64,000 nucleotides of DNA from a virus. The notes below the pieces were generated by a model, which saw only the letters and a program-made list of their open reading frames with translations, was not told the DNA's origin and did no database searches. Below, in pieces: positions 7,080 to 35,946 of the stretch; position 1 is the first letter of the stretch, and the number at the start of each line of letters is the position of its first letter. Position numbers and translations under genes: made by a program. The DNA is taken from the UHGV virus genome UHGV-0332176. One strand, 5' to 3'.

Positions 7080-7649
7080 TTAATAGCATAACATAATTTT
7101 TTCAACATTTCCTAAAACAGATAATGACATTCTTCTATCATATGCTTGAGTATAATTTGGTGTCCAATTTTCATAATATGCAGGGTCGTATTGTGGATTT
7201 AAATTTGATGTTGGATATGGAGCGTGAGTATAATCTACATTATCAACTTTTGAACTCATTATATATTCAGTTGATTTAGTATCAAATGGAGCAAATGGAG
7301 AACGAACCAATGGAAGATAACTTCTATCTAATTTTGCTCTTAACCAAACATATGAACCATCAACATTATAATAATCAGCTTGTCTTTTAACTAAAATAGG
7401 ATTATAATTAGAATATTCAATATAAGGAGTATTATTGGTTAAAGGAATAGTAAACCAATCTAAATCAGTTTTTGGTTCAGTTTTTAAAGACCCTTCCAAC
7501 CATATTCGTCCTGTAAAATTAGTTGTATGAATAACAATTGTATTACTTCTTTTATTTGTTTTATGCGAATTATATGCAACAGCTTTAATAGGTTTTCCAA
7601 TAAAATCTGTTTTACCGCTCATATTATCTAAAAGAACTTGTGTCTGCAT
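7080..7649 (-). CDS. hypothetical protein, possible virion/baseplate-associated
   Basis: ORF in the minus-strand operon with the gp25-like gene. No motifs recognised. Confidence 0.5.
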   Translation of the reverse strand: MQTQVLLDNMSGKTDFIGKPIKAVAYNSHKTNKRSNTIVIHTTNFTGRIWLEGSLKTEPKTDLDWFTIPLTNNTPYIEYSNYNPILVKRQADYYNVDGSYVWLRAKLDRSYLPLVRSPFAPFDTKSTEYIMSSKVDNVDYTHAPYPTSNLNPQYDPAYYENWTPNYTQAYDRRMSLSVLGNVEKIMLCY

Positions 7650-9403
7650 TATAAATTTACTCCTGAAAGTTTTAAAACTTCTTGAATTTCATCGTCATTA
7701 TCTTCATTATCTTCATCATCCACAAATTTATTATATTCTAAAGTTGTCATAAAAATATCAATAATTTGACTTGCATCTTCTTCAGAATGGTCGCTTTCGT
7801 AATCATAAAATTCAGCATACATAGGATTAATATCTCCTTCTTCTTCACGAAATGAAATATCATTAACTAAATCCATATAAGATTTTTGACCATTATCAGC
7901 ATATTCTTCATAAAATTCTCTTACACTATGACAATCTTCAAATTCATATAAAAAAGCTCCTTTAAATTGTTCTAAATAGTGTGTATAATTATTATTATGA
8001 TATGTAGAATAATAATCATTATAATTTGGTTTAGGTGGATTCCATCCTAAATCTTTTAATTTTTCATATATATAATTTCCAATTAAATCAAATGCTGGAA
8101 GTGGGTTCAATTTTTCATAAACTTCTTTTTGCCAATATTCATTTTTAGAAGTAAACCATTTATAAACATCATAAGAACTATAATCTGCATTATTGGTTTT
8201 AAATAAAACATATAAAAATGTAGTAAAATCCATTTCCGAAGCAGAAGTATTAGAATCTTTTAAATAAAATTTATATAATGTTAATAAATCAGTATTTTCC
8301 CAACTAATTTCATTAATAAATCCTTCTGTTTGAGCAATTTTTTCCATTAATTTAGAAGTATCACTATATCCACCTTCATTATATCCAGTTGATGCAAATT
8401 CTTCAAAATCTTTAATATCTAAATATATGGTACTTTTAATTAAATCACGATAATCAATTAACATACAAATAATACCATCTTCATTATATGTTAAATTATA
8501 TTCATTTATAACATTATCTTCTTTATCATCATCCCATTCATCATCAATACTGTCATCTTCAAGAGATTCATATGAATTGGTTACGTTTTCTTGGGTTAAA
8601 AAGAAATCTAATAATTCTGGATTATCGTGAACAAATTCTCTAAATTTTACAGAATCATTTTCAGCATCTCTAAATTCTCTTGGTCTGTTACTATCACTAT
8701 CATTGGGAACAAATAATTGTAATTTCACTTTTTGATTTTCTTTATTAATAATTACATATAATTGACCATCAGCAGTATATGCATCATAATAATAACAGTT
8801 ATCTCCACCTGTACACCAAGAAGCTCCTCGTCTTAATGCTTTTGAACCTTCATATGTATGTGGTGTCCAAACTTCCCATTCATCTTCATTAAATAATAAT
8901 TCAACAGCTCCGTTCATATATAAACCAGGTTTTTTCTCACCTTGTAATTCTTTTTGGTTTCTTTTTGCATCTTTATTTTTTTGATTTGCTGTTAAATTAT
9001 TTTTGGCATCTTCTAAAGCATTTTTTAAATCTTCAATAGATTTATAACTGTTAATATCATTATTTGGTAATAAATTTTTTCTATTTTTTGCTTGAGTAAA
9101 TGCTTTAAGATATTGTTGCATTTTTTCAGGAGAAATATTTTTTAATTCTCCCAATTTATTCATTTTTAATAGCCAACGAATATAATTTTCAGGAGTTGAT
9201 GCCATTACTTCATTAGATAAATTTTGTATATTATTTAATACTGGGTCAAATGATATTAAATATTTAAATTCTTCATCAGATAAATTTGAAGCATTTTTTT
9301 GTCTTACATCTAATAATGATTCATTTAATAATGTGCTAAAATTAATATTATTAATATTAACTTTTTTCCCTTCTTTTATAATGTTAAAATAATCTAATTT
9401 CAT
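7649..9403 (-). CDS. hypothetical acidic protein carrying the paralog-family motif and a C-terminal EVLK linker motif
   Basis: SWCTGGDNCYYYDAY resembles the family's aromatic-W-[ST]-[ST] block. The C-terminus DDEDNEDNDDEIQEVLKLSGVNL matches the acidic-EVLK-AG motif of ORFs 32202 and 34546. Confidence 0.55.
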   Translation of the reverse strand: MKLDYFNIIKEGKKVNINNINFSTLLNESLLDVRQKNASNLSDEEFKYLISFDPVLNNIQNLSNEVMASTPENYIRWLLKMNKLGELKNISPEKMQQYLKAFTQAKNRKNLLPNNDINSYKSIEDLKNALEDAKNNLTANQKNKDAKRNQKELQGEKKPGLYMNGAVELLFNEDEWEVWTPHTYEGSKALRRGASWCTGGDNCYYYDAYTADGQLYVIINKENQKVKLQLFVPNDSDSNRPREFRDAENDSVKFREFVHDNPELLDFFLTQENVTNSYESLEDDSIDDEWDDDKEDNVINEYNLTYNEDGIICMLIDYRDLIKSTIYLDIKDFEEFASTGYNEGGYSDTSKLMEKIAQTEGFINEISWENTDLLTLYKFYLKDSNTSASEMDFTTFLYVLFKTNNADYSSYDVYKWFTSKNEYWQKEVYEKLNPLPAFDLIGNYIYEKLKDLGWNPPKPNYNDYYSTYHNNNYTHYLEQFKGAFLYEFEDCHSVREFYEEYADNGQKSYMDLVNDISFREEEGDINPMYAEFYDYESDHSEEDASQIIDIFMTTLEYNKFVDDEDNEDNDDEIQEVLKLSGVNL

Positions 9404-9792
9404 TAATTTACTCCCAATGGAAAATATCCGTTTGATGGATTATTAAATTTATCTAATGTTATATCTAATTGCCATTCTTCAGGAATACCATCTAAATAAC
9501 TTATAGAACAATAGAAAACCCAACCTTTATCAATATCTACTGGTTCAATGCTTAATAATGTAAAACGGGGGTCTTCAAGAAATGTTTCAATAAGTTCATT
9601 TTGTATATCATTTCTAACTTGAATGGTTTTTGGTTGAAACAATTTATTTTTGATTGTTGTTCCAAAATTAGGGTCCCAATCACATTCACCTTTTGTTGTA
9701 TAAATTCTTAATAATAAATCGTGTTTAGCTAAATCTTTATCAATAAGAATCCCCCATTCATCATTTATTGTTGTATATCCAGTAATTGTCAT
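9403..9792 (-). CDS. baseplate wedge protein, gp25/GPW-like
   Basis: TTKGECDWDPNFGTTIKNKLFQ matches the T4 gp25 pattern TTRKGSRPFDPEFGCDLSDQLFE. Size is 129 aa. Confidence 0.6.
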   Translation of the reverse strand: MTITGYTTINDEWGILIDKDLAKHDLLLRIYTTKGECDWDPNFGTTIKNKLFQPKTIQVRNDIQNELIETFLEDPRFTLLSIEPVDIDKGWVFYCSISYLDGIPEEWQLDITLDKFNNPSNGYFPLGVN

Positions 9793-9820
9793 AAAAAATC
9801 CTTATATATAAAGATATTTA

Positions 9821-9849
9821 TTGACAATTTTAATGTTTAATGATAACCT
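9821..9849 (+). promoter_or_regulatory. sigma70-like promoter TTGACA-17-TAACCT in the divergent intergenic region
   Basis: TTGACA at 9821-9826, a 17-nt spacer and a weak -10, upstream of the gene at 9875. Confidence 0.4.
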
Positions 9850-9874
9850 TTCATATGATTAGAGGTTTAAAATT

Positions 9875-10900
9875 ATGAAATATATACTATTAACAGATAT
9901 ACATTTTGGTAATCACGGAAATAGTGATGAATTTAATCAAGAATGTAATAATTTTTTAAAATTTGTTGAAAAAACAATTGAAAATAGAGAAGATATTGAT
10001 GGAGCAATTTTTTTAGGAGATTGGTTTCATAATAGAAATTCTATTAATGTAAAAACATTAAAAGCAGGAATAGAAGGTTTATATACATTTGGTTCTATTG
10101 GTCGTGGAAATTCTTATATGATTATTGGCAATCACGATTTATATTATAAAGATAGACGTGATGTAAATAGTATTATTATTCCTGAAGGAGAAATTGGTGT
10201 TAATCTTGTAGAAGAACCAATTTATTTAGAAGAACAAAAATTTTTATTTTTACCTTGGTTAATTAATGAAGAAAAATTAGAAGATTATATTAAACAATAT
10301 AATCCTGAATATGTTTTTGGACATTTTGAAATTCCTTCTTTTTCTTTTAATAAATTAGTTAAAAAAGAAGGTGAATATAATCCTGAAAATTATAAAGGTC
10401 CAAAACGAATTTTATCAGGTCACTTTCATTTAAGGCAAGAAAAAAATAATATTACATATATTGGTAATTGTTTTTCTCACGATTTTTCTGATGTCAATGA
10501 TTGGCATAATAAAGGATTTGCTATTTTAGATACTGATAAAAATTCTTTAGAATATATAGAATGGAATGATGCTCCAAAATATTGTACATTTTCTATTAGT
10601 AAATTAAATAATATTAATTTAAGTAATAATATGTATTTAAAATTGGTGAATGATGTTCAAATGAAACAATTTGAAATTAATCAATTAAAAGAAGAATTAG
10701 AAAAGTTACCAAATATTAATGAATGTTTTATTTATCCAAATGAATTAGAATTAGCAAAAACAATTATTGATAATAAAAAATTAGAACATATTTCAGATAT
10801 TGAAACTTTAATAATTTCATTATTAAATGAATTAACAATGGAAAATATTCAAAATCAAAAATTAGTCAATATATATAAAAATTTACAAATAAATTCTTGA
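9875..10900 (+). CDS. Mre11/SbcD-like recombination nuclease subunit (T4 gp47-like)
   Basis: Calcineurin-like phosphoesterase motifs DIHFG, GDWFH, GNHD and GHFH. AGAGG RBS. Followed in the array by a Rad50/SbcC-like gene. Confidence 0.8.
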   Translation: MKYILLTDIHFGNHGNSDEFNQECNNFLKFVEKTIENREDIDGAIFLGDWFHNRNSINVKTLKAGIEGLYTFGSIGRGNSYMIIGNHDLYYKDRRDVNSIIIPEGEIGVNLVEEPIYLEEQKFLFLPWLINEEKLEDYIKQYNPEYVFGHFEIPSFSFNKLVKKEGEYNPENYKGPKRILSGHFHLRQEKNNITYIGNCFSHDFSDVNDWHNKGFAILDTDKNSLEYIEWNDAPKYCTFSISKLNNINLSNNMYLKLVNDVQMKQFEINQLKEELEKLPNINECFIYPNELELAKTIIDNKKLEHISDIETLIISLLNELTMENIQNQKLVNIYKNLQINS

Positions 10901-10924
10901 CAATATAAATTTAATTTTTATAAT
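10897..10924 (+). promoter_or_regulatory. sigma70-like early promoter TTGACA-16-TATAAT overlapping the gp47-like stop codon
   Basis: tcTTGACAAtataaatttaatttttATAATg. The TGA stop at 10898-10900 lies inside the -35 element. Confidence 0.55.
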
Positions 10925-10959
10925 GTTAAACGTTAATTATTATAAGGAAATTACTATTT

Positions 10960-11484
10960 ATGTATATTAATAAAAAAGACTATACAGGAGAATCTGCTCG
11001 TATGGGACAAACAGCAGAAGATTTATTTGAAAATTGGCTAAAATTAAATAATAGAAAATATAGGAAAGCAACATTATCTGAACAATTTAAACATATTGAT
11101 TTTATTGTTAATAGTGATAAATTGAAAAAAGAAATTAAAATAGATGTTAAAGCATCAAAAAAAGTTAATAGAAAAGACGAAGCTGAAAATACTAATTTTT
11201 TATGGGTTGAATTTAAAAATGTTCAAGGGAAAAATGGTTGGCTATACGGTGAAAATGATTTTATAGCTTTTCATAAAATAGATGAAAATTGTTTTTATTT
11301 AGTTGAAACAAAAGAATTGGCGAAGTTATGTGAGAAAATTTGTAACCAAGGAAATGCATTATATTCTAAAGATGCATTATATCATAGATATACCAGAAAT
11401 GGAAGAAAAGATGAATTATCAATGATATATTTTGATGATATAAAAAAATGTAATTATAGTATTATAAAATTAGGAGAAAATTAA
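10960..11484 (+). CDS. hypothetical protein, possible PD-(D/E)xK fold
   Basis: AAGGAAA RBS. HIDFIV...EIKIDVK resembles D...E-x-K. This is a weak call. Confidence 0.5.
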   Translation: MYINKKDYTGESARMGQTAEDLFENWLKLNNRKYRKATLSEQFKHIDFIVNSDKLKKEIKIDVKASKKVNRKDEAENTNFLWVEFKNVQGKNGWLYGENDFIAFHKIDENCFYLVETKELAKLCEKICNQGNALYSKDALYHRYTRNGRKDELSMIYFDDIKKCNYSIIKLGEN

Positions 11485-12611
11485 TGACTCAAATCAGAGA
11501 TAGTATTGAATTAGATTTTTGTGATGTTTTATTTAGACCAAAAAGAACAACATTAAATTCAAGAAGTGAAGCAGATGTTATTCGTGAATATAAATTTAAA
11601 TATTATCCAAAAACAATTAAATCTTGTGGTATTATGGCAGCTAATATGGCTACAACAGGAACATTTGATATGAATGATGTTCTTCAAAAATATAAAGCAA
11701 TTACTTGTTTACATAAGCATTATACAGAATATGAAATAAAAAATTATATGACCATAAACAATATGGATGATTATTCTGACCATAATTCATTTACATTTAT
11801 TTCAACAGGTTTGAAAGATGATAAAGAACAGTTGTTTAGATTATTACAAACTGGGTCGCAGATTGATAAGATTTGTATTGATATTGCTAATGGTTATATT
11901 CCAAATTTAATTAATTTTGTTAAAGAAGTTAGAGAAAAATTTCCAAAATCATTGATTATGGTTGGTAATGTTGTTACAGGTGATATGACTCAAGATTTAA
12001 TTCTTAATGGAGCAGATATTGTAAAAGTTGGAATTGGACCTGGTTCTGTATGTACTACTCGTAAATTAACTGGAGTTGGAAGACCTCAATTGTCAGCAAT
12101 TTTAGAATGTGCAGATGCTGCTCACGGTGTTGGTGGTTTAGTCTGTGCAGATGGTGGGTGTACTTGTGCAGGTGATGTTGCAAAAGCATTTGGAGCAGGA
12201 GCAGATTTTGTTATGCTTGGTGGTATGTTTGCTGGTACAGATGAATCTGCTGGTGAAATTATAGAAAAAATGTATAGAACTAATGAATATAAATATCATT
12301 ATTTAACTGATAATTCTATTGAATCCGATAAACCAATTTTTGAGGTTAAGAAATTTAAACAGTTTTATGGAATGTCTTCACAACTTGCCCAAGAAAAGCA
12401 TTTTGGTGGTATGGCAAATTACAGAGCATCAGAAGGTAAAGTTGTTGAAATTCCTTATAAAGGTTCTGTTGAGAATGTCATTCAAGAAATACTTGGTGGA
12501 ATTCGCTCTACAATGTCATATATTGGAGCTAAAAGATTAAAAGATATTCCTAAATGTACAACTTTTTATAGAGTTAATAGACAATTAAATGAAGTTTTTG
12601 GAAAAAGTTAA
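11484..12611 (+). CDS. guaC: GMP reductase (IMPDH/GuaC family)
   Basis: Near-colinear match to E. coli GuaC: [84 protein letters not shown] and [15 protein letters not shown]. An insertion lies before FYGMSS. Confidence 0.9.
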
Positions 12612-12850: not shown

Positions 12851-12858
12851 GGTTAATA

Positions 12859-14973
12859 ATGGAATTAAATTTTAAAGAAATTAGAATTAGAAACTTTTTA
12901 TCATTTGGAAATGTTGAAGAAATTATTCCATTAAATAAGTGTTTATATCAAGTTATTATTGGTATGAATAAAGATAAGTCTAATTCATCATTAGATAGAA
13001 ATGGTGTTGGTAAATCAACAATTTTTGAAGCCATTCATTATGCTTTGTTTGGAAAATCTATTGGAAATAAAATTACATTAGGTAATTTAATTAATAACAT
13101 TAATAAAAAAAATATGGTTGTAACTCTTGTTTTTGAAAAAAATGGAGTTGAATATACTATTAAAAGAGGACGTTCACCTAATATTTTAATGTTTATGAAA
13201 AATGATGAAGAAATAAATGTTAATGAAGCACAAGGAGATTCCAGAGAAACACAAGTTGAAATTGAAAAAATTTTAGGAATGAATGAAGATGTATATAATC
13301 AAATTGTATGCTTATCTTGCAAAGTTCCAATTTTTAATGACCAAACAACAGCAAACCAAAAGAATATTATTGAACATATTTTAGGTATTAATATCATATC
13401 TGAAAAAATAGATGCATTAAAAGCACTTATTAAAGAAACTAAAAATGAATTTAATAATAAACAATTTGAGTATAATACTATTAAAACTCAAAATGATAAT
13501 TTAATGCAAACAATTAATAATCAAATTGCTGATATGAATACAGCTAAAGAAAAATGGGAAAATGAAATTAAACAACAAATTAATAATGTTGAAAATGTAA
13601 TTTCCCAAATGAAATTGATTGATATTGATACTGAAATTAAAAACTTTCAGTTGCTTGAAAATTATTTAACACAAGAGGGGGTGAATCAACAAAATCAGCA
13701 ACTGAAAGATTCTTTAAATAAACAAATACAAGAAAAAGATATTTTTATTAAAAATTATCAGATTCGTATTGTTGAATTATTGAAATATAATTTTATAGTT
13801 GAACGTCAAAATATTTTTTATAATGAGCAACTTAATAAAGAAAGAATTGCTTATGATATTGAAGAAAATAAATATAAAACTATTAAAAATTTTAAAGAAC
13901 AAAATCTTGATACTAATTTTAAACGTATTGCTAATGAAATTGAAAAAAAAGAAATTGAATTAGCAAATATTAAAGAAAATGTTTGTCCGACTTGTGGTCA
14001 ACCAATGGGAGTTGAAGAAGTTAATAAATTAAAAGAAAGTAAAAAAGAGGAGATTGTTCAACTTCAAAAAGAATTACATAGAATTGATATGGATATTTTA
14101 GAAGCAAACCATACTATTTCTTTATTTGTTCCAAAAGTATTTGAATTTAAACCAGTATCATTTAATGATATGAGTTCATTACTTGAAAAAGAAAATGAGT
14201 TAAATCAATTAAAATTACAATTAGAAAATATTGTTAAAGAAAAAAATGATTTAATTGAACAGGAAAATAAAATTGTTATTGTTGATTTAGGTATTAAACC
14301 ACAGACACATTATTCTAATATTCAAGAAGCATTACAACATCAAGCAACGTTAGAATCATTAGGAATTACTTTAAATAGTTTACAAAAACAATTATTAACA
14401 AATCCTTTTGAACAACAAGAAAAATCTATTGAAGAACTTAAAAAGAATATTCAAGTATTAGATGACGCACCAATTAAACAAATTCAAGATGATTTAAATC
14501 ATCAAGAAGTTTTATTAAAATTGTTAAATAGCCCATCATCTTTTATTAGAACAACAATATTAGAAAAATCATTAGAATTTTTAAATTCTAAAATTATGCA
14601 ATATTTAGCACAATTAGGTTCTTTACATATTGTATCATTTAATAGTGATATGTCATTAACAATTGAATATATGGGTATTCAATATGGTTATGTTTCAACA
14701 GGAGAAATGGGACGTATTACATTAGCATTAACATTAGCATTTAGAGATGTTTGGGAAACATTAAATAATTGTAAAATTAATTTATTTGCAATGGATGAGG
14801 TAATAGACCGTATTGGTTTAGATACTGCTGGAGTTGAAATGACAGTTCAAGCATTGCAAACAAAGGAAGATAAAAATGTTATGTTAGTTACACATAATGA
14901 TACATTAATTAATCAAGCACCACATTTAATGACACTTGTTAAAGAAAATGGGTTTACGGAAATATTAAAATGA
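12859..14973 (+). CDS. Rad50/SbcC-like recombination ATPase (T4 gp46-like); start adjusted to the ATG at 12859 with a GAGG RBS
   Basis: N-terminal Walker A NGVGKST, long coiled-coil regions, CPTCGQP zinc hook, and C-terminal signature/Walker B region LFAMDEV...D-loop. Confidence 0.85.
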   Translation: MELNFKEIRIRNFLSFGNVEEIIPLNKCLYQVIIGMNKDKSNSSLDRNGVGKSTIFEAIHYALFGKSIGNKITLGNLINNINKKNMVVTLVFEKNGVEYTIKRGRSPNILMFMKNDEEINVNEAQGDSRETQVEIEKILGMNEDVYNQIVCLSCKVPIFNDQTTANQKNIIEHILGINIISEKIDALKALIKETKNEFNNKQFEYNTIKTQNDNLMQTINNQIADMNTAKEKWENEIKQQINNVENVISQMKLIDIDTEIKNFQLLENYLTQEGVNQQNQQLKDSLNKQIQEKDIFIKNYQIRIVELLKYNFIVERQNIFYNEQLNKERIAYDIEENKYKTIKNFKEQNLDTNFKRIANEIEKKEIELANIKENVCPTCGQPMGVEEVNKLKESKKEEIVQLQKELHRIDMDILEANHTISLFVPKVFEFKPVSFNDMSSLLEKENELNQLKLQLENIVKEKNDLIEQENKIVIVDLGIKPQTHYSNIQEALQHQATLESLGITLNSLQKQLLTNPFEQQEKSIEELKKNIQVLDDAPIKQIQDDLNHQEVLLKLLNSPSSFIRTTILEKSLEFLNSKIMQYLAQLGSLHIVSFNSDMSLTIEYMGIQYGYVSTGEMGRITLALTLAFRDVWETLNNCKINLFAMDEVIDRIGLDTAGVEMTVQALQTKEDKNVMLVTHNDTLINQAPHLMTLVKENGFTEILK

Positions 14974-15713
14974 ATCAATTTGAATTATTAAATGATAATT
15001 GTTTACCAATATTAGATAAATTTATATCTGAAAATCGTAAGGTGGATTGTATTATTACTTCTCCACCTTATAATATGAATCTTAGAGTTATGAAAGGGAA
15101 ATATGTTTCTCGCTGTAATAATAAAAATCATAAAATAGAATTTTCAACAAAATATGAAAATTATAATGATGACCTTTCTATGGAATATTATTTTAATTTT
15201 CAAAAAGAATTTATTGAAAAAGCATTAAAAGTTTCCGATTTAATGTTTTATAATATACAAATGCTAACAGGTAATAAAATAGCTTTATTTAAATTAATGG
15301 GTTATTTTGCAGATAAAATTAAAGAAATTATTATTTGGGATAAAGGTTATGGTCAGCCTGCTATGCAAGTTGGTATGTTAAACAGCCAATTTGAATTTAT
15401 TATTGTATTTGATAATAATAAACCATACAATAGAGCATTTGATTGTGCTAATTTTGCCAGAGGAACTGAAACAAATATTTGGGAAATTAAGCGTGAGAGA
15501 AATAAATTCATTAAAGCTGGGTTTCCAACAGCATTAATTGAAAAAATTTTAGTAAATTTTACAAATGAAAATGATATTATTCTTGACCCTTTTATGGGAA
15601 GTGGAACTTGTGGTATTGTTTGTAAAGAAATGAATAGGAATTTTATTGGAATTGAATTAGATAAAAATATGTTTAAAATTGCAAAAGAGAGAATTGAAAA
15701 TATAAATAAATGA
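14970..15713 (+). CDS. beta-class amino-DNA methyltransferase (N4-cytosine or N6-adenine)
   Basis: Motif IV IITSPPYN precedes motif I DPFMGSGTCG, which is the beta-class order. SPPY favours N4C. Confidence 0.75.
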   Translation: MNQFELLNDNCLPILDKFISENRKVDCIITSPPYNMNLRVMKGKYVSRCNNKNHKIEFSTKYENYNDDLSMEYYFNFQKEFIEKALKVSDLMFYNIQMLTGNKIALFKLMGYFADKIKEIIIWDKGYGQPAMQVGMLNSQFEFIIVFDNNKPYNRAFDCANFARGTETNIWEIKRERNKFIKAGFPTALIEKILVNFTNENDIILDPFMGSGTCGIVCKEMNRNFIGIELDKNMFKIAKERIENINK

Positions 15714-15729
15714 AATAATAGGATTTAAT

Positions 15730-16359
15730 ATGAAAGTATCAACTTTTTATATGGCAGATATTTCTGAATATGATAATTTTATTGAAAAATTATATAATGA
15801 TATTCAGAAAAAATTTGTTGGAAAAGGTATAAATTCTATTTTAATTAGTCGTTTTATTTCTTATTTAAGAAAAGAATTTTCAATTTATGCATCTTTTAAA
15901 TTAAATAAAAAAACAAATATTATAATTATAATTCCTCGCATATCTACAAATCTTATTGAAAAAACAATTCATAATAATATTGAACAAATTAAAATTCGTG
16001 TTGAATATAATAAATTAAAAGAAATTTTAAGTGGTCAATGTGAAAATTTAGAAGATTATATTAATGAATTAGTTGAACAATTTAAAGAATATGTTATTGA
16101 TAAACCATCATTAAATTTTTCAAAATATCTTTATTTACAAATTGATAATTTAGTTGATATTTGTTATAATGAATTAATTAGTATATATCAATCAAAAATA
16201 ATTTATGAAAATTTAATGAAAAATAAAGGATGGATAATTTTATCCAGAAAGTCATCAATTTTTAATGATTATTATAATTTATTTCAGCAAAATAAAATTG
16301 AAAATAAAAATATTTTTCATAATTTTTTGTATAAATTAGCATTAAAATTAAAGGATTAA
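15730..16359 (+). CDS. hypothetical protein sitting inside the MTase cluster
   Basis: ORF with an AGGAT RBS. No motifs recognised. Confidence 0.5.
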   Translation: MKVSTFYMADISEYDNFIEKLYNDIQKKFVGKGINSILISRFISYLRKEFSIYASFKLNKKTNIIIIIPRISTNLIEKTIHNNIEQIKIRVEYNKLKEILSGQCENLEDYINELVEQFKEYVIDKPSLNFSKYLYLQIDNLVDICYNELISIYQSKIIYENLMKNKGWIILSRKSSIFNDYYNLFQQNKIENKNIFHNFLYKLALKLKD

Positions 16360-16361
16360 TA

Positions 16362-17255
16362 ATGAAAGTGTTGTCATTATTTGACGGCATTGGAACAGGA
16401 AGATTATCATTAGAACGAGCAGGAATAAATGTTGACAAATATTATGCTTCAGAAATTGATAAAAATGCTATAACAATTGCTAAAACAAATTATTCTGATA
16501 TTATTGAATTAGGTTCTGTATTAAATTGGAGAAATTGGGATATTGAATGGAATACCATAGATTTATTAATAGGTGGTTCTCCGTGTACGTCATTTTCTTC
16601 AGCAGGTAAACAACAAGGATTTAATGGAGAATCTAAATTATTTTTTGAATATAGAGATATTTTAAATTATTTAAAATCTATTAATCCTAATATTAAATTT
16701 CTTTTAGAAAATGTTATAATGAAAAAAGAATGGGAAGAAGTCATAACTAACGAAGTTGGTGTGAAACCTATTTTAATTGATAGTTCTTTATTATCTGCTC
16801 AACAAAGAAAAAGAAATTATTGGTTTAATTGGAAAATAGAATATCCTGAAGATAAACATATTGAGTTAAAAGATATTTTAGATAATAAAGACTTTTGTTA
16901 TAAAGCAACAATAGTGGGAAGAAGAATTAATAATAATGGACACAGAGAAGATTATAATAAAGAAATTCCTATCGTTCAATGTTTAGAAGTACGTAAAGCA
17001 AATAGTAATAAAAGTAATTGTTTAACAACTGTTGAAAAAGATAACGTTTTAAGTAATTTATCTTATGGAAGATATGTTGATGCTTTTGGAAAATATAGAA
17101 AAAATTGGACTTATTACTCTTTAAAAGAATATTGTAGATTACAAACTTTACCTGAAAATTATTGTGATTCTGTTCCTGAACATTTGGCTAAAAAAGCCAT
17201 TGGTAATGGTTGGACAGCAGATGTAATAACGCATATATTTAAAGGATTACAATGA
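16362..17255 (+). CDS. DNA (cytosine-5)-methyltransferase
   Basis: Motif I LFDGIGTG, motif IV GGSPCTSFS (catalytic PC), motif VI ENV, motif VIII QQRKRNYW, and a motif X-like GNGWTADV. Confidence 0.8.
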   Translation: MKVLSLFDGIGTGRLSLERAGINVDKYYASEIDKNAITIAKTNYSDIIELGSVLNWRNWDIEWNTIDLLIGGSPCTSFSSAGKQQGFNGESKLFFEYRDILNYLKSINPNIKFLLENVIMKKEWEEVITNEVGVKPILIDSSLLSAQQRKRNYWFNWKIEYPEDKHIELKDILDNKDFCYKATIVGRRINNNGHREDYNKEIPIVQCLEVRKANSNKSNCLTTVEKDNVLSNLSYGRYVDAFGKYRKNWTYYSLKEYCRLQTLPENYCDSVPEHLAKKAIGNGWTADVITHIFKGLQ

Positions 17256-17346
17256 CATTTATTTTAAGTTTATTACTTGTTTGCTCATTTATGATGTTTT
17301 GTATATATAAAACAATAAATGATGATGATAAATGGGGATTTTGATA

Positions 17347-18150
17347 ATGGTGAAAATTATTAATGATAAGTATTATACTCCTAAAGATTTGGCAAAAAGA
17401 TTAATAGATACAACTATTAAAGTATTAGTTTATAATGGAGTGAATGATATTGAAGATATTATTGAACCATCAGCAGGAAATGGTGCATTTAGTTCACAAA
17501 TAAAATGTACAGCATATGACATTGAACCAGAATTTAAAGATATTATTAAAGCTGATTTTTTAAAAGAAAATATTGAATATAAAAAGAATAGATTATGTAT
17601 TGGAAATCCGCCTTTTGGAAATTCAAATTCATTATCTGTAAAATTTTATAAAAAATGTTGTGAAATTGGTGATTATATTGCTTTTATTCAACCTATATCG
17701 CAGTTAAATAATAATTTACAAATGTATGAATTTGATTTAATATATTCAGAAGATTTAGGGATAATTCAATATTCAGATAGAAAATTACATTGTTGTTTTA
17801 ATATATATAAACGTCCTAAAAATGGAATTTTAAATGAAAAACCTGATTATACATTAAAAGATATTACTATTAAAGAATATCGCCGTAATGGTTCATATAA
17901 AAAACCTGAAGGATATGATTATGCAATATGTAATTGGGGTAATGGTTCATTGGGAAAAGTTCCTGAATATGTTGGACAATATGCACAAGAAGCATATTTT
18001 TATTGTCATAAATCAGAATTTACAGAACAAATGAAACAATTATTAGAATTTAATACTATTAGGGAATATGTTAATTCTATTTCGGCTAAAAGAATTTCAG
18101 TAATGAGATTGTATAAGTATTTAAAAGATAATATTAAAGGTATAGAATGA
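17347..18150 (+). CDS. gamma-class N6-adenine DNA methyltransferase; the alternative start at 17332 lacks an RBS
   Basis: Motif I IEPSAGNGAF followed by motif IV IGNPPFG. GGGGA RBS before the ATG at 17347. Confidence 0.7.
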   Translation: MVKIINDKYYTPKDLAKRLIDTTIKVLVYNGVNDIEDIIEPSAGNGAFSSQIKCTAYDIEPEFKDIIKADFLKENIEYKKNRLCIGNPPFGNSNSLSVKFYKKCCEIGDYIAFIQPISQLNNNLQMYEFDLIYSEDLGIIQYSDRKLHCCFNIYKRPKNGILNEKPDYTLKDITIKEYRRNGSYKKPEGYDYAICNWGNGSLGKVPEYVGQYAQEAYFYCHKSEFTEQMKQLLEFNTIREYVNSISAKRISVMRLYKYLKDNIKGIE

Positions 18151-19007
18151 GTGATTATATAAAATGTCCATTAAGATATACTGGTAACAAATATAAATTG
18201 TTATCACAAATTTTACCACTATTTCCAAAAAATATTAATACTTTTGTTGATTTATTTGCTGGAAGTTATACTGTTGGAATAAATGTTAATGCAAATAATT
18301 ATGTTTGTAATGATATGATAACATATCTTATAGAGTTTTTTGATTTCTTAAAAAATAATGATTTAAACAAAATTTTAGAAACAATAGATAATATTATTGG
18401 AACGTATCAATTATCTAAAACTAATTTAGAAGGTTACAATGCGTTAAGAGAAGTTTATAATCAGACAAAATATCCATTAATTTTGTTTATATTAACTTGT
18501 TTTTCATTTAATCATCAAATAAGATTTAATAATAATCATCAATTTAATTCTTCGTTTGGAAAATATAAAAGTTGTTATAATGATTCAATTAAAAATGATT
18601 TAATAAAATTTACAAAAATTTTAAAAAATCAAAATATTCAATTTTTTAATGGAGATTATAAGGATTGTTTAAATAAACTAGAATTAAATGAAAATGATTT
18701 TGTTTATTTAGACCCACCATATTTAATTTCAACTGCTGCCTATAATGATGGAAACAGAGGATTTAAAATGTGGACGGAAAATGATGAAAAAGAATTGTTG
18801 AATTATTTAGATGAATTAAATAATAAAAATGTTAAATGGGCATTATCAAATGTTTTAGAAAATAATGGCTCTAAAAATGATATTTTATTTGATTGGAGTC
18901 AAAAATATATAGTTCATCATTTAAATTATACATATAATAATTGTAATTATCATAGAAAGAATAAAGGTTCTAATGATAGTGATGAGGTGCTAATTACAAA
19001 TTATTAA
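18147..19007 (+). CDS. dam: Dam-type (alpha-class) N6-adenine DNA methyltransferase, T4 Dam-like
   Basis: RYTGNKYKLL, FVDLFAGS and FVYLDPPYLISTAAYN...ENDEKELLNYLDELN align closely with T4 Dam (FVYVDPPYLITVADYN...EDEEKDLLNLLDSLN). WALSNVLEN matches GQSNVLEH. Confidence 0.9.
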   Translation: MSDYIKCPLRYTGNKYKLLSQILPLFPKNINTFVDLFAGSYTVGINVNANNYVCNDMITYLIEFFDFLKNNDLNKILETIDNIIGTYQLSKTNLEGYNALREVYNQTKYPLILFILTCFSFNHQIRFNNNHQFNSSFGKYKSCYNDSIKNDLIKFTKILKNQNIQFFNGDYKDCLNKLELNENDFVYLDPPYLISTAAYNDGNRGFKMWTENDEKELLNYLDELNNKNVKWALSNVLENNGSKNDILFDWSQKYIVHHLNYTYNNCNYHRKNKGSNDSDEVLITNY

Positions 19008-29770: not shown

Positions 29771-29814
29771 TTTGTTTCATAATGGATATACTTATTATGG
29801 AAAAGGAAAAGAGA

Positions 29815-30823: not shown

Positions 30824-30824
30824 A

Positions 30825-30905: not shown

Positions 30906-30915
30906 TTTCTGTTAA

Positions 30916-30953
30916 ATAAAGCATAATATTTTGATATATTATGCTTTATTACT
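30916..30953 (+). terminator. terminator hairpin
   Basis: ataaagcataatat / atattatgctttat 14-bp stem with a 6-nt loop. Confidence 0.55.
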
Positions 30954-31000
30954 ATAAAAATAATATAATAAATACTTTTATATTGATAAAAGGAAAATAA

Positions 31001-31510
31001 ATGAATCTATTTTTATTACAGCAATATCAATTTATTAATGATATATATAAAAATGAAAATTATTTAGATGTCTTAATGAATATTGATGATTTTTTTGATA
31101 TTCTTAATGTGTATGCTTTTCCAAATTGGTTTGATGCTGAAATAGTTGAAGTAAATTTTTTAAGACATTTTACAAATATTATTTTAAAAACACCACGAGA
31201 TAAAAAACCTCATACAAAAGGAAGTGTTTTATTATCTAAGTATGATTGTTTAGTAAAATATAAACCATCTTATGAATATTTGCCAAAAGAATATAAAACA
31301 GAAAAAGATATTAAATATAATACTCGTACAGGAAAATATGAACCAATAATGGAAAAAAAGGATATTTGGTTAGTTGACATATTAATTCCAAATAAACATA
31401 TTATTAATGATAACATTTACGATTTAGATGCAATTCAAAAGAAATTAGATGATGAAAATGAAACAAATGATAATGTTGAATCAGTTGTATCAAATGGTGA
31501 TGAAATTTAA
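31001..31510 (+). CDS. hypothetical protein
   Basis: ORF with an AAGGAAAATAAATG RBS. Confidence 0.5.
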   Translation: MNLFLLQQYQFINDIYKNENYLDVLMNIDDFFDILNVYAFPNWFDAEIVEVNFLRHFTNIILKTPRDKKPHTKGSVLLSKYDCLVKYKPSYEYLPKEYKTEKDIKYNTRTGKYEPIMEKKDIWLVDILIPNKHIINDNIYDLDAIQKKLDDENETNDNVESVVSNGDEI

Positions 31511-31519
31511 GGATATAAA

Positions 31520-32200
31520 ATGAAATTATATGAAGATTTGAGAGAAAATGATTTAGCTAATTTAATATCTTCTTATATAAGTATAGATGAATATACTTCT
31601 AAAATTGATGAAGATAATATTACTGTTGCTTTATTTGTAAATGAATTAGATGCAGCAGAAGAATTGGAAGATTTTATTGAAAAATATTATTATATTGAAA
31701 TTCGTGATATTGAAATTTCTGATTCATTAACTGATGATAACAAATATATTATTTTCGTTGAAGTTGAAAGGAATGATAATTTTCCCAAAATGATTTTAGA
31801 TATGATTGATACTATTAATTTTGTCGCAGATAATAAAGGATGGAATTTTTCAACATATCAAATGAATGAACCAGTTGAATTATCTGAAGAAAATATTAAA
31901 AAATATGTTAGATTGAATAAATTAAGAGATACGGCTAATATTGATACAGATGAAACAACAGTTGAAGAAAATTATAAACCTTTTTTAATTAATGACAATG
32001 GCTGGATACGTAAATATACTCCAAAACGTTATATTTCAGAAGATGAATTAAATAGAATCATTGAAAGCTCTAAAACTTTTAATGATAGAGATGATGGTGA
32101 AATTTATTTGTTAGAAAATGCGTTTCCAGGTTATGAAATTATTACAACTGATAAAAATGTTTTCTTAATTAAAAATAATAAAATTTTAATGATGGTTTAA
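31520..32200 (+). CDS. hypothetical acidic protein
   Basis: ORF. Confidence 0.5.
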   Translation: MKLYEDLRENDLANLISSYISIDEYTSKIDEDNITVALFVNELDAAEELEDFIEKYYYIEIRDIEISDSLTDDNKYIIFVEVERNDNFPKMILDMIDTINFVADNKGWNFSTYQMNEPVELSEENIKKYVRLNKLRDTANIDTDETTVEENYKPFLINDNGWIRKYTPKRYISEDELNRIIESSKTFNDRDDGEIYLLENAFPGYEIITTDKNVFLIKNNKILMMV

Positions 32201-32201
32201 A

Positions 32202-32963
32202 ATGAAATTATATAGAGGTTATAATAAAGATTATTCAAATTGGGGAATTAGACCAAATCAAAATTATATTTGGACGACTGATGATATTGATTATGCATTA
32301 GAATATGCTAAATTATTTAATAATGGCGGTTTAGTTGAATTTGATGTAGATGACAATCAATTAAATTTAGCAAATGATTATGATGGTGAAGAATTATTTG
32401 GCGATGAATGGTATGATTTTGGTGGTTTGATTGATGCTGATAATGATATGATTCAAGTTTTTATAGATAATGGTTTTAATTCAGCATTATTAGATAATAG
32501 TGGGATTGATTGTTATTTATTATTTGATAAAAAATTAATTAAATCCGCAAAAGAATTACCAATAGAATATGATGAAAATGCTATTAATGAAGTTTTAAAA
32601 ATTGCTGGTGTTCAAATAAATGAAAGCAAATATACTGTTAAAGGCGTTACATTTTATGAAGACCCATCAATAAATTGGATTAAATCACAATTAAATAATG
32701 GTAAAGAACTAAGAATTGCTATTGATGGTGATTTAAATGAGCCTTATTTTGGACAATGGTTGGTATGGGACGCAATGTCTGCTAATCATCAAAAAGCATT
32801 TCAAATACTTGGTATGGATGAAGAAGATAATATCTGTTTAAGATTATCAAAAGATGCTATAACCTATTGGGGATATTATAATCATCAAATAAATAAATTA
32901 TCTCAAGATGAAAAAATACAAAAAATATATCCAAATGGATACAAACTTATTAAGGAATGGTAA
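32202..32963 (+). CDS. small ART-like paralog family protein (253 aa), ModA/ModB-like candidate
   Basis: N-terminal LYRGY...NYIWTTDDIDYALEYA...NGFNSALL. The acidic linker then NEVLKIAGVQINESK is shared with ORF 34546. Confidence 0.55.
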   Translation: MKLYRGYNKDYSNWGIRPNQNYIWTTDDIDYALEYAKLFNNGGLVEFDVDDNQLNLANDYDGEELFGDEWYDFGGLIDADNDMIQVFIDNGFNSALLDNSGIDCYLLFDKKLIKSAKELPIEYDENAINEVLKIAGVQINESKYTVKGVTFYEDPSINWIKSQLNNGKELRIAIDGDLNEPYFGQWLVWDAMSANHQKAFQILGMDEEDNICLRLSKDAITYWGYYNHQINKLSQDEKIQKIYPNGYKLIKEW

Positions 32964-33344
32964 ATGAACATATTTTTAAAATTTCTACCATATTTGTTAA
33001 TAATTGCATTAGGTGCTGGTATCTATGGTGGTTTTAGATATATGTCAAATGAATTATCTATTACTAAAGAACAAAATCAAACTCTTATTATTAAAAATAA
33101 TGAATTACAAAATCAAATTAAAACAATTTCAACAACAGCTAATGTAACTGTTGAACAATTGGAACAGATTAGAAAAAATGAAAAAGAATCATTAAAATAT
33201 ATTTCTGAAACTAATTTAAAAATAGATGCGTTGGAATTAAATGAAGATTCAAACATTATACTTATGAAAATTAATAACTATGAAGTATGTATGGCAAAAA
33301 ATTCATTAAATCCTGAAATTAAATGTGAATTAAATATAAAATAG
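32964..33344 (+). CDS. membrane-anchored coiled-coil protein
   Basis: N-terminal TM segment FLPYLLIIALGAGIYGGF followed by a coiled-coil region. Confidence 0.5.
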   Translation: MNIFLKFLPYLLIIALGAGIYGGFRYMSNELSITKEQNQTLIIKNNELQNQIKTISTTANVTVEQLEQIRKNEKESLKYISETNLKIDALELNEDSNIILMKINNYEVCMAKNSLNPEIKCELNIK

Positions 33345-33355
33345 TTTATTTTCTC

Positions 33356-33383
33356 TTGACAAGTAATTTTTATATGTTATATT
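33356..33383 (+). promoter_or_regulatory. sigma70-like promoter TTGACA-16-TATATT
   Basis: ctcTTGACAAgtaatttttatatgtTATATT, upstream of the gene at 33420. Confidence 0.5.
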
Positions 33384-33419
33384 AACCTTATCAACAACAA
33401 ATAATGAAAGGTTAAACAA

Positions 33420-33788
33420 ATGATTACTTCAACTGAATTAGAAAATTTGATGGCTTATGCAACAGGTACAGAAAATTATTACAGATATAACTGTGGTAAT
33501 GAAATTCTTATTACTGATGGAGTAAAAATTTTTGCAGAAAATGCAGAAGCATTTTGGTTCTTAAATGATTTTTGTATTTTTATGCCTAAATGGATTAAAA
33601 AAACCGAAGAAGAATTCTTTTCTATTAAACTTATTGTTAAAAATGGTAAAGGTGATATGATTATTTCTGATGGTAATGATAAACCTCTTTATAAAAAACA
33701 TTATTCATATACCGATTGCCCAAATGGAGAATGGCTATTCTTTTATGATAATTATTCAAAAGTTCTTATGTGGCACAATGAATATTAA
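33420..33788 (+). CDS. hypothetical protein
   Basis: ORF with a GAAAGG RBS. Confidence 0.5.
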   Translation: MITSTELENLMAYATGTENYYRYNCGNEILITDGVKIFAENAEAFWFLNDFCIFMPKWIKKTEEEFFSIKLIVKNGKGDMIISDGNDKPLYKKHYSYTDCPNGEWLFFYDNYSKVLMWHNEY

Positions 33789-33794
33789 GATTAA

Positions 33795-33828
33795 AAACCT
33801 CTCTAATAAATATTTAGAGAGGTTTTTT
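33795..33828 (+). terminator. rho-independent terminator
   Basis: aaacctctctaa / ttagagaggttt 12-bp stem with a 7-nt loop and a T-run. Confidence 0.7.
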
Positions 33829-33841
33829 ACTTGGAGATATA

Positions 33842-34539
33842 ATGAAAATTTCAGAACATATGCGAAAAATATTAGAAATGGCTGGTATTGAAGAACCATT
33901 AGAAGAAATGGCATATCCAACAAATTTTAATTTAAATGAATTTTCTCAAATTCCAACATTTATTGGAAGAAAAAATATTGTGATGAACGTTTACAAAAAA
34001 TAGGTGCTGGTTCTTCAAGAATTGTTTATAGGGTTGATGATGAAAAAGTTTTAAAAATTGCAAAAAATAAAAAAGGATTAGCTCAAAATGAACACGAAGC
34101 TGATTGGGGAAGAAATAATTATGAAATTTTTGCAAAAATTTATGAAGCGGATACTAATAACTATACTTGGATTGAAATGGAATTAGCTACAAAAGCTAAA
34201 CCAACAGATTTTAAAAGATTAGTTGGTATTTCGTGGCAAGAATTATGTTTGACAATAGAATATATTTATGATATATATAAACCTAATAAAAATCCTTATT
34301 ACGTTAAAAGATATGATAGTAGATTAATGGATGAATTTATGGAAAAAGAAGTTTATTCAGAAAAGAATGATTTTCTTTATAATTTATATACTTATATGAC
34401 GGATTATCAACCAATGATTATTGGTGATTGGACGAGAATTACAAACTGGGGGATAGTTGAACGTAATGGAAAAGAATTGCCCGTTATTATTGATGATGGA
34501 TTAGATGAATTAATTTATAAAACATATTATGGATGGTAA
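33842..34539 (+). pseudogene. protein-kinase-like gene split by a -1 frameshift at an A-run near 33970-33976. This could be a programmed or transcriptional slip, an assembly error, or genuine decay.
   Basis: Frame A runs from the ATG at 33842 (GGAG RBS) to a TAG at 34003. Frame -1 is open from 33940 to 34539 and encodes IGAGSSRIVYRV (Gly loop), VLKIAK (beta-3 Lys), IGDWTRITNWG (catalytic-loop-like) and IIDDG (DFG-like). Confidence 0.45.
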
Positions 34540-34545
34540 TTGAAA

Positions 34546-35946
34546 ATGGTAGAATTTATTGCATATCACGGAAGTCAAACAAGTAAATTAAAAATGTATG
34601 AAAATTCAGCATTATATTTTACAACTAATTATAATCAAGCAAAATCTTATGCTAAAAGAGAATGGGATGAAGGACTAATTGAAGGACAAATTCCTGTTGT
34701 ATATAAAGCTAAATTAAATATTGAAAATCCTTATAAAATTAAAGATTATGATGAATTTATGATGGATTTTACTGATACAGGTATGTATGAATATTTTAGG
34801 GAAGAATTGATTGAAAAAGGATATGATTCAGCAATTTATGATGATAAAAAACATAAGTCACAATTAATAGTTATTTTTTATCCATCTCAATATAAAATTT
34901 TAGAAATGGAAAAATTACCACCATCTTTAGAATATTATTATAATGGTGAATTAGAAGACGATGAAGATATAAATGATTACTATTATGAAGATGATTATGA
35001 TGATGAGATTGATGAAGTTTTAAAAAGAGCTGGTATTCAAATTAATGAAGAAAAGATAGATGCTCCATTTCAAATTCCAGAAGTTATTAAAGACAATTTT
35101 AAAATTACTAATTCATTAAAAGATGCAAGTAAATGGAAAGCCAAAATTATTGAAAACAATAGTAATGGTGATGAATCAATTGGTATTGGTGATTGGAATA
35201 ATATTGGTTATGTAATGATTTCATTAAAAGATAATACAATTATTCCTATTGCTCGTGCAGATGAGCATAAACAAGGTTATGAACTTTTATATGAATTACA
35301 AGAGAAATATGGAATAAATGCATCAGATTATTATAGTGTTTGGTGCTTAAAAAATTCAGCAAATTATCCTTATAATAAAGAAGAAGGAGATTTATTGAAA
35401 AAAGCATTAATTAAATGTAAAAGTTATGGTATGGATTTATCAAAATCTTTGGTTTATATGAAATATATAGACCCACTTTATAGAGATAAATCTTATGATG
35501 ATTCTATGATTACAGCTGAAGATTTTATAAATGATAATTATCAAACAGTTGAAAAATTAAATACCTCAATTACAAATACTGGAAATAAATTAATTGATGC
35601 TTTTAAATTGTTAAGTGAAAGTTTTTCTAAAACAAATATTCGTGGCAAGTATTCAATTGTTAATATTAATAAAGCAATAAAGAATTTATATAATGTTGGA
35701 AGTAAAATAATTTTAAAAGATAATTTTAAACTGGTTAGTGATATGGATTTAGAACAAATGCAAGAATTTGTGCAACAGTATAAAGAAGGATATTATAATA
35801 ACAATCAATTGTCAAAAGTATTTTTTGGATTTATGGGATTTAGAAATAATTTTCATCAACGTTTAAGAAAAAACATTGATAATAAAATGCTTGAAAAACA
35901 ATTAGGGTCAGTTGAAAAAATTATAGAAATAATAGGAAGTATATAA
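34546..35946 (+). CDS. ART-like paralog family protein (467 aa); start taken at the ATG of the aaaatggtagaat repeat
   Basis: N-terminal AYHGSQT...ALYFTTNYNQAKSYA...KGYDSAIY. An acidic linker is followed by DEVLKRAGIQINEEK, shared with ORF 32202. Confidence 0.55.
   Translation: MVEFIAYHGSQTSKLKMYENSALYFTTNYNQAKSYAKREWDEGLIEGQIPVVYKAKLNIENPYKIKDYDEFMMDFTDTGMYEYFREELIEKGYDSAIYDDKKHKSQLIVIFYPSQYKILEMEKLPPSLEYYYNGELEDDEDINDYYYEDDYDDEIDEVLKRAGIQINEEKIDAPFQIPEVIKDNFKITNSLKDASKWKAKIIENNSNGDESIGIGDWNNIGYVMISLKDNTIIPIARADEHKQGYELLYELQEKYGINASDYYSVWCLKNSANYPYNKEEGDLLKKALIKCKSYGMDLSKSLVYMKYIDPLYRDKSYDDSMITAEDFINDNYQTVEKLNTSITNTGNKLIDAFKLLSESFSKTNIRGKYSIVNINKAIKNLYNVGSKIILKDNFKLVSDMDLEQMQEFVQQYKEGYYNNNQLSKVFFGFMGFRNNFHQRLRKNIDNKMLEKQLGSVEKIIEIIGSI

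Follow-up and report, generated by a model that had tools for sequence, protein, structure and literature searches.

In bacteriophage T4, the internal proteins and Alt are loaded into the scaffold core of the prohead, and the head protease gp21 removes short N-terminal peptides from them (sections of PMC9958956 and PMC5694885). How proteins are sorted into such a T4-like core was still called 'mysterious' in the part of a 2023 review that treats this step (PMC9958956). Here, we analyse a 64 kb stretch of viral DNA (UHGV virus genome UHGV-0332176; the window), in which an initial annotation had noted a short peptide shared by three otherwise different proteins. To our knowledge, the capsid targeting sequence (CTS) of T4, which is N-terminal, is the only sorting signal of this kind that is known. 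Judged by its residues, the peptide of the window, which is named tag in the following, is also the peptide with which the gp22-like scaffolding protein of related jumbo phages ends at its C-terminus. What is new here, on this evidence, is that the tag and this scaffold tail are identical, the tail being conserved very widely.

Several described systems resemble parts of this arrangement. The scaffold C-termini of P22 gp8, of pre-VP22a from herpes simplex virus 1 (HSV-1) and of phage 80alpha bind capsid protein, the maturation protease of HSV-1 cuts the scaffold tail off, and the SaPI1 protein CpmB mimics the 80alpha tail. The likeness is that the last scaffold residues form the shell contact and that, in the case of CpmB, the tail has been copied by another protein. 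We know of no tail of this type that marks enzymes or effectors for loading. Encapsulin cargo-loading peptides are short, sit on a flexible linker, usually at the C-terminus and sometimes at the N-terminus, and bring enzymes into an HK97-fold shell; they differ from the tag in sequence and system, and there is neither a protease step nor a scaffold. The ejection proteins of phiKZ and SPN3US are head cargo of giant phages as well, are processed after Glu by an S77-related protease, and have propeptides that are thought to target them to the prohead (according to sections of PMC5694885). These propeptides differ from the tag in being longer than 100 residues, N-terminal and cut at A/S/G-x-E, and no scaffold homologue is known there. 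Finally, polyvalent proteins combine several effectors, among them the ADP-ribosyltransferase (ART) module ART-PolyVal, and are encoded near virion genes. Packaging, injection and processing are predicted for them, and embedded zincin-like peptidase domains are proposed to carry out the processing (Iyer, Burroughs, Aravind et al. 2017; sections of PMC5512222). The text of that paper does not contain the word 'linker' and gave no matches to 'capsid targeting'; no linker motif is described in it.

The pattern I-x-E-V-L-K-x-[AS]-G-[VI] occurs exactly three times in the window, at the places named by the initial annotation. In open reading frame (ORF) 7649, which codes for a putative virion protein of 584 amino acids (7649..9403, minus strand), an acidic linker and the tag form the extreme C-terminus (DDEDNEDNDDEIQEVLKLSGVNL, 7652..7720, minus strand). 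In ORF 32202, the tag is internal and followed by an I-N-E site (AINEVLKIAGVQINE, residues 127–141, 32580..32624, plus strand). In ORF 34546, an acidic, Tyr-containing linker precedes the internal tag, and I-N-E follows it (GELEDDEDINDYYYEDDYDDEIDEVLKRAGIQINE, 34945..35049, plus strand). A fourth, diverged copy had been missed; it opens the gene at 33842, is followed by P-L-E-E (MKISEHMRKILEMAGIEEPLEE, 33842..33907, plus strand) and is akin to the N-termini of the homologues P0009 and P0010 (MELFEELMRIAGVPVEE). Of the acidic runs that had been described in front of the motif, two are strong, and that of ORF 32202 (EYDEN) is weak. The VLK core is preceded by I-x-E in the window copies, and the conserved core can be written as x-[IV]-x-[DE]-[IVL]-[LRK]-[KR]-x-[AS]-G-[VIL].

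A looser regular expression, [VIL][LIVM][KR].[AS]G[VILM], applied to all six-frame ORFs of at least 40 amino acids in the window, matches only the three sites annotated initially. An estimate from rough amino-acid frequencies puts the number of chance matches to EVLK.[AS]G[VI] at about 3e-4 for the approximately 20,000 amino acids of genes; the three copies are therefore not due to chance, and an origin by chance or low complexity was rejected. The codons of the tag differ among the window copies (TCA GGA GTA compared to GCT GGT GTT/ATT), which rules out a single DNA repeat as its origin. The codons TCA GGA GTA of ORF 7649 spell AGGAG at a distance of 10–14 nucleotides (nt) before the ATG of the gene that follows (7080-7649), which may explain why this tag contains a Ser instead of an Ala.

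Judged by gene content and order, the window phage belongs, as a distant member, to the T4-related jumbo phages of the PA5oct/121Q/RaK2-like group, since 19 window ORFs have homologues in the Pseudomonas jumbo phage PA5oct (286,783 bp) and their local order is conserved. In PA5oct, the coiled-coil protein EST35_0153 ends in VEELRRLAGIK. Its gene lies between those of a gp21-like protease and of the major capsid protein, which is the position of T4 gp22. The homologues of EST35_0153, which in 121Q, Serratia phage BF, Salmonella phage Munch and others bear the annotation scaffolding protein, all have an end of this kind. The motif thus terminates the product of the gene located between those of the gp21-like protease and the gp23-like capsid protein in six cultured relatives, PA5oct included. 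The tails read LKELDVLSGINKK in 121Q, LEELSILSGIIKK in RaK2, INDLKRLAGIKK in Atu_ph07, MLINAGIKKN in SCTP-2 and NMMKLAGIKG in XacN1. T4 gp22 itself ends in VYAKVASRF, which is not the tag motif.

Further scaffold loci were gathered from IMG/VR via the capsid protein, and the ORF upstream of the related capsid gene was taken as the scaffold; the capsid gene of the clade has more than 597 candidate matches in this database. 76 of 78 such ORFs end in [IV]-x-[DEN]-[IL]-[RK]-[RK]-L-A-G-[LI] plus zero to four residues. Two further scans increased the number of distinct tails, from IMG/VR and the six cultured phages, to 151 (for example VVDIRRLAGLN). The scaffold carries the motif in about 190 loci of many environments, and the genomes have a GC content of 32–55%. 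The 151 tails make use of all six Leu, all four Ala and all four Gly codons, which indicates that the protein, and not the DNA, is under selection. The position before the core is often occupied by a D or N in scaffold tails, and not by an E.

A search with a hidden Markov model of 11–13 columns (hmmsearch) was unreliable for this motif, as the local alignment took fragments; a full-length scan with a position-specific scoring matrix (PSSM) was used instead. The matrix was built from scaffold tails alone, with none from the clade of the window phage. Among 34,410 window positions, the tags of ORF 34546, ORF 32202 and ORF 7649 occupy ranks 1, 2 and 3, and the copy at 33842 occupies rank 5. The tagged proteins of the window thus contain the scaffold-tail motif but are not scaffolds; the tail is common to both, the family is not. 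Of the two functions that had been suggested for the motif, processing or packaging signal, packaging is consequently the better half, because the core matches the scaffold tail. The I-N-E element, which had been taken as part of the motif, is by its distribution distinct from the tag and is also found where no tag is present. A tblastn search with a 21-residue scaffold tail gave nothing at E values up to 10, and the back-translated pattern I-x-E-V-L-K-x-A-G-[VI] had 49 matches in IMG/VR, which is about chance (30–60 by a rough estimate); these are spread over unrelated families (portal-like, baseplate-like) and all lack an acidic linker. A full-text literature search with motif strings and with capsid-targeting and scaffold-tail terms yielded no description of the motif, in agreement with the initial statement that none is described for any phage.

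The PSSM scan was also applied to PA5oct (156,234 positions), whose own tail was left out of the matrix. The top five matches (scores of 18.8–21.8; next 13.6) are the scaffold tail, two sites in gp203, one in gp235 and one in the ATPase gp335. Among annotated genes, gp227 and gp206 follow; an unannotated ORF of 47 codons scores between them. All five proteins other than the scaffold (gp203, gp235, gp335, gp227 and gp206) are flagged as detected in virions by electrospray ionization tandem mass spectrometry (ESI-MS/MS), compared to a baseline of 93 of 461 proteins. gp203, which is encoded two genes upstream of EST35_0205, begins with MFNINDILRLAGVQAVKES. The tag-like sequence of gp335 (EST35_0335, 234078-235193 in the PA5oct record), a protein detected in virions, is VSDILQLAGINKD and has a score of 20.4.

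The homologues of the tagged proteins were compared with respect to the position of the tag. ORF 7649 weakly matches PA5oct EST35_0205, which is annotated as 'structural protein, ESI-MS/MS' (tblastn and blastp); its matches among cultured phages are weak and confined to PA5oct-type phages. ORF 7649 belongs to an operon on the minus strand that also contains ORF 5013 and the gene of the gp25-like baseplate wedge (9403-9792). The AlphaFold 2 (AF2) model has a mean predicted local distance difference test (pLDDT) value of 84 and is well folded up to about residue 555, whereas the values in the last 30 residues are 57/50/39; a Foldseek comparison of the model with the PDB was without a significant match. 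In about 30 of 72 homologues, with identities down to 41–43%, the C-terminus consists of an acidic run and, after it, I-x-E-V-L-[KR]-x-[AS]-G-[VI]-x-x. In a few others the tag is internal and followed by a further domain, and 29 of the 72 possess, instead of the tag, the conserved tail [KE]-[IV]-D-E-S-L-F-E-P-D-W. This alternative tail, which is present in P0035, P0038, P0062 and 26 others, is preceded by I/V-x-E and absent from the window; it may be an alternative address label. A protein of 865 amino acids from the relative L271 (12428-15025) consists of an ORF 7649-type domain (TRWCTTSRNHNYYDRYTKDGPLY), an acidic linker, the tag and an ART-like domain (LYHGSPFF), and thus links the two protein families in which the tag was found.

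ORF 34546 (34546..35946, plus strand) codes for 466 amino acids, which comprise ART-PolyVal, a linker, the tag and a C-terminal domain of 290 residues. The match to PF18760 has an E value of 1.3e-6 and 29.7 bits, which is just below the cut-off of 31.2 bits, and is also precomputed for cluster P0001. The ORF listing gives a TTG at 34540 as start; cluster P0001 (466 amino acids) begins with the ATG at 34546, as in the initial annotation. The AF2 model contains two folded domains; residues 151–173 have pLDDT values below 50, and an isolated helix in this linker (152–163) corresponds to the tag. The position of the tag varies in this family: it may be internal, at the start of the protein (P0009, see above) or at its end (NQINEVLKVAGINESI in P0015). 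Searches of cultured phages for near matches and for protein matches to the ART genes of the window gave no match.

ORF 32202 (32202..32963, plus strand; 253 amino acids) contains an N-terminal domain of no assigned family, the tag and a C-terminal 'WD...H' module. By eye, the N-terminal domain appeared ART-like; this found no support from Pfam or hhalign and is not claimed. Among its relatives, P0099 has another domain before the tag, P0101 has another domain after it, and P0102, which directly follows a polyvalent protein of 1736 amino acids in its genome, starts with the tag. An hhalign comparison of ORF 32202 with the ORF 34546 family gave a probability of 63% and an E value of 7e-5. The C-terminal module is recurrent and has the signature [IV]-W-D-x(4-12)-H (LVWDAMSANHQKAF, YVWDAYYGTHDDIF, FIWDADEAVHGVIN); it is located at 32625-32960 and 35065-35943 of the window, at residues ~440–460 and ~915–925 of ORF 55930, and in P0016-P0021.

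The gene that carries the fourth copy (33842..34539, plus strand) combines the tag with a module starting with MAYPTNF (YCDERLQKIGAGSS). It is split into two frames by a change of one nt in an A-run at about 33965-33975 (GGAAGAAAAAATATTG). Since intact or fused homologues exist in the relatives L271 (15590-16228, MNIINE/MAYPSNF; the slash stands after the Glu here and below) and L272 (a protein of 553 amino acids, NLEE/MAYPMNF), 33842-34539 is one gene; the frame break may stem from an error in the assembly, may mark a pseudogene or may reflect programmed slippage. A kinase-like nature, suggested by eye from a Gly-rich loop, was without support from Pfam or hhalign and is not claimed.

Altogether, the same domain is found with the tag before it, behind it or between it and another one in P0009/10, P0015, P0096, P0099-P0102, the 865-residue protein of L271 and a 519-residue protein of L272. 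As homologues place the tag at the C-terminus, at the N-terminus or between domains, it is, by these comparisons, a mobile unit of termini and junctions. Homologues and AF2 models thus bore out that the motif is conserved and lies at domain boundaries or protein termini, that it separates effector modules, ART-PolyVal among them, and that it is situated outside folded domains, namely in low-confidence linkers or tails of the AF2 models of ORFs 7649 and 34546. A tag-like N-terminus followed by L-T-E (IKEVLKMAGIIERLTEG) was further observed in ORFs of about 615 amino acids on the unrelated contigs L034, L038 and L049 (IMG/VR, 43–45% GC); it may be the same device in another phage group.

The three tagged genes 32202, 33842-34539 and 34546 form an insertion between homologues of PA5oct 0295/0296 and a DnaJ-like/ClpA-like gene pair (36313, 36975). 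It spans 32202-36275, between 31520-32200 and 36313, in a backbone that is syntenic with PA5oct, and is flanked by a homologue of the PA5oct structural protein 0295 and by baseplate genes. In L271 and L272, other tagged genes are located at the same spot, and a DUF6876 gene is always included. From this comparison, the insertion looks like a fast-changing cargo island. The DnaJ-like gene is separated from the tagged ART gene by a small ORF (35946-36275, plus strand) whose start is of the lipoprotein type (MMKKIFLLLIALMLCAC).

A Glu site of the form [ILV]-x-E follows within 10 residues after all 17 distinct tags that are not C-terminal. Examples are QINE, QLNE, SLNE, PVEE, PLEE, AVKE, NVEE, KIDE and LKE. 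The [L/I]-x-E-type site that follows a T4-type CTS is therefore present in 17 of 17 cases at the level of sequence. The consensus of T4 gp21 is L/I-x-E. In PA5oct, EST35_0152 is a Peptidase_S77 (PF03420, E value 5e-24), which is also annotated in 121Q, RaK2 and SCTP-2. The T4 capsid maturation site FLTE65/A aligns with FLVE42/N of PA5oct, which suggests that the specificity has been kept in the clade. For T4 gp21 and its relatives from giant phages, cleavage is described as always occurring after Glu (section of PMC5694885). The initial proposal that QINE is a protease site thus holds insofar as a candidate site follows each non-C-terminal copy; the conserved core itself is not a cleavage site. 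In the 89 window genes, INES occurs in four copies, compared to a mean of 0.7 after shuffling, and all of them are found at tag or module junctions: one follows the tag of ORF 32202 and three are located in ORF 55930-58890.

Junction sites of this kind also bound the modules of polyvalent proteins. ORF 5013 (5013..7070, minus strand), which belongs to the operon of ORF 7649, is an ART-PolyVal multi-module protein (PF18760, E value 8e-19) that lacks the tag; its junction-type sites are NIYE/T at the end of the ART module (6456-6470), SFNE/S (5364-5378) and NINE/N (5343-5357). A polyvalent protein of 986 amino acids with DUF5662 is encoded by ORF 55930 (55930..58890, minus strand; INES junctions at 57883-57894, 56809-56820 and 56317-56328). 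In strain variants of this protein, modules are inserted exactly between INE/S and [IF]-x-E/SSYYGNVNW. Compared to the window, the variants L142 (3071-6109) and L143 (2720-6109) show inserts of ART-PolyVal (in L142) and of an unrelated module of about 290 residues. In the relative of 1736 amino acids, at least five ART-like modules are arranged in series with NIDE/S, KLNE/S, LVDE/S, NIYE/S and TLTE/S. The multi-effector character of polyvalent proteins is hence found in ORFs 5013 and 34546 (PF18760) and in ORF 55930 (DUF5662, with the ART-PolyVal insert in L142), and their proximity to virion genes in ORFs 5013 and 7649, which belong to the operon of the gp25-like wedge gene. Pfam scans of the tagged and polyvalent ORFs detected no peptidase domain, and thus no zincin-like metallopeptidase; an embedded domain of this type is common among polyvalent proteins, but not obligatory. 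The window proteins differ from the set of PMC5512222 in their gp21-type [ILV]-x-E-[ST] junctions and in the subset that carries the scaffold-tail tag.

We lean towards the view that the tag is a portable label for loading into the prohead, a mimic of the scaffold tail that is trimmed by the head protease. The C-terminal tail would hold the scaffold in the prohead by binding to the inner face of the capsid, to core proteins or to the protease. Tagged proteins would present the same peptide on a flexible, often acidic linker and would co-assemble with the scaffold core inside the prohead, and the tag would be usable at either terminus or between two domains. The predicted cargo comprises effectors of the ADP-ribosyltransferase type, the module with the Gly-rich loop and the ORF 7649 virion protein. 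A gp21-type Peptidase_S77 would then cut after Glu at the [ILV]-x-E that follows non-terminal tags, and at the like sites between the modules of polyvalent proteins, which would release the domains within the head, to be injected later together with the DNA, comparable to T4 Alt and the internal proteins. Binding in the prohead, the binding partner, cleavage and injection are all parts that we infer from sequence.

On this reading, a close parallel is the CTS of IPII and IPIII together with the Alt propeptide of T4, where likewise a short peptide is the means by which non-structural cargo enters the prohead's scaffold core. Part of this cargo is an ADP-ribosyltransferase, which is injected later, and gp21 removes the peptide after Glu (sections of PMC9958956 and PMC5694885). 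The T4 CTS comprises about 10 residues of another sequence and is exclusively N-terminal. In contrast, the tag also occurs at C-termini and between domains, is accompanied by long acidic linkers and is common to the scaffold tail; it is N-terminal in the 33842 ORF, P0009/10, P0102 and PA5oct gp203. A wider proposition is plausible, albeit a little short of probable: one position-independent peptide would both hold the scaffold and load changing effectors across a widespread clade of T4-related jumbo phages, to which PA5oct, 121Q, RaK2, Atu_ph07 and the window phage belong, with protease sites as punctuation.

The constant presence of Glu sites next to the tag could also mean that it is a docking site, or recognition exosite, by which the gp21 head protease is directed to its cuts, with no role in loading. 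Non-terminal tags are invariably followed by [ILV]-x-E, the VLK core of the window copies comes after an I-x-E, and the T4 scaffold is itself a substrate of the protease (section of PMC9958956). However, in the scaffold the motif forms the very last residues and the preceding position is often D or N instead of E; junction sites bound modules without any tag; and cleavage at the C-terminal tags of ORF 7649 homologues would free just a peptide of nine residues. We therefore consider a mere protease exosite unlikely. A docking motif for the portal or for the phage's DnaJ-like (36313) or ClpA-like (36975) protein, that is an adaptor site or a degron, is improbable as well. The cargo island is located immediately 5' of DnaJ/ClpA in the window phage, L271 and L272, PA5oct encodes ClpA, ClpX, ClpP and ClpS, and a terminal position on a flexible linker is typical of degrons; but the sole constant bearer of the motif, in about 190 loci, is a head scaffold encoded between protease and capsid genes, and the tagged proteins of PA5oct are stable virion components. 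Modules are swapped exactly at tags and INES sites among strains and relatives, as would be expected if the motif were a recombination linker at the DNA level, providing microhomology for module shuffling and having no function as a peptide. Yet the window copies differ in their codons, the tails keep their amino acids with all synonymous codons in genomes of 32–55% GC, and the motif is kept at the end of an essential single-domain protein, where nothing is shuffled; hardly any weight can be given to this explanation.

Some observations weigh against loading by a scaffold-tail mimic, the reading that we favour. The PSSM scores of the window tags (about 13) are no higher than the best ones in a shuffled proteome (median 12.5); the single scores are thus unremarkable, and the evidence consists in the coincidence of ranks. 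The gp335 match of PA5oct lies probably inside a folded AAA+ domain and may be due to chance. Several polyvalent proteins have junction sites but no tag, so that the tag is not the sole route into the head, if these proteins are packaged at all. The PDB was searched and contained no scaffold or capsid structure from the PA5oct/121Q/RaK2-like clade. The window phage's own scaffold and protease genes are presumed from its relatedness to PA5oct. The head module lies outside the window, head genes are absent from a 10-kb extension beyond its right end, and AT-biased DNA patterns of capsid genes, with which this module was sought in IMG/VR, retrieved only loci of 32–39% GC. Moreover, two tagged ART genes may be transcribed from a sigma-70-like promoter 5' of 33420 and not from a late promoter; this promoter evidence is weak in a genome of 24% GC, and a sigma-70 promoter scan of 30.5–36.5 kb was at chance level (64 sites compared to 58 expected).

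If the tag does load cargo, a simple rule follows, namely that cargo binds wherever the scaffold tail binds, and this is testable in PA5oct, 121Q and RaK2. The tag would further be a genomic marker with which the injected effectors of uncultured jumbo phages can be read from sequence, would explain the loading and the module cutting of polyvalent ADP-ribosyltransferase proteins, and would offer a short portable label for the packaging of foreign proteins in large phage heads.

The T4 late-promoter octamer TATAAATA is depleted across the window (19 copies compared to 35.5 expected). Several copies lie 20–40 nt 5' of gene starts, including those of a virion gene and of the polyvalent protein of 986 amino acids, where the distance is 36 nt. 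Copies are found at 39797-39804, 4459-4466, 15701-15708 and 48007-48014, and on the minus strand at 58926-58933 and 61716-61723. Variants of the form AATAAATA are present 5' of the 9792 operon (minus strand) and of the 31001 operon.

The window has a GC content of 24%, contains no tRNA genes and has no near match among cultured phages. The same sequence is present on ENA contigs of 286,627 and 286,851 bp, which corresponds to a jumbo phage of about 286.6 kb; by calculation, the window takes up about positions 133,108-197,107 of the former contig (ERZ1314781, NODE_2). PHROG and Pfam scans revealed the gene content of a large myovirus. Besides the gp25-like wedge gene (9403-9792, minus strand) and the DnaJ-like/ClpA-like pair, it comprises a baseplate hub with lysozyme (43609-45579), SbcCD, an RNA ligase and a tRNA nucleotidyltransferase. 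Four consecutive DNA methyltransferase genes (14970-19007, plus strand) are located immediately 3' of SbcCD. A gene for ribosomal protein S21 lies about 9 kb beyond the right end of the window (19490-19711 of L142); PA5oct likewise has a bS21 gene, and phages with bS21 have been described (PMC9723584).

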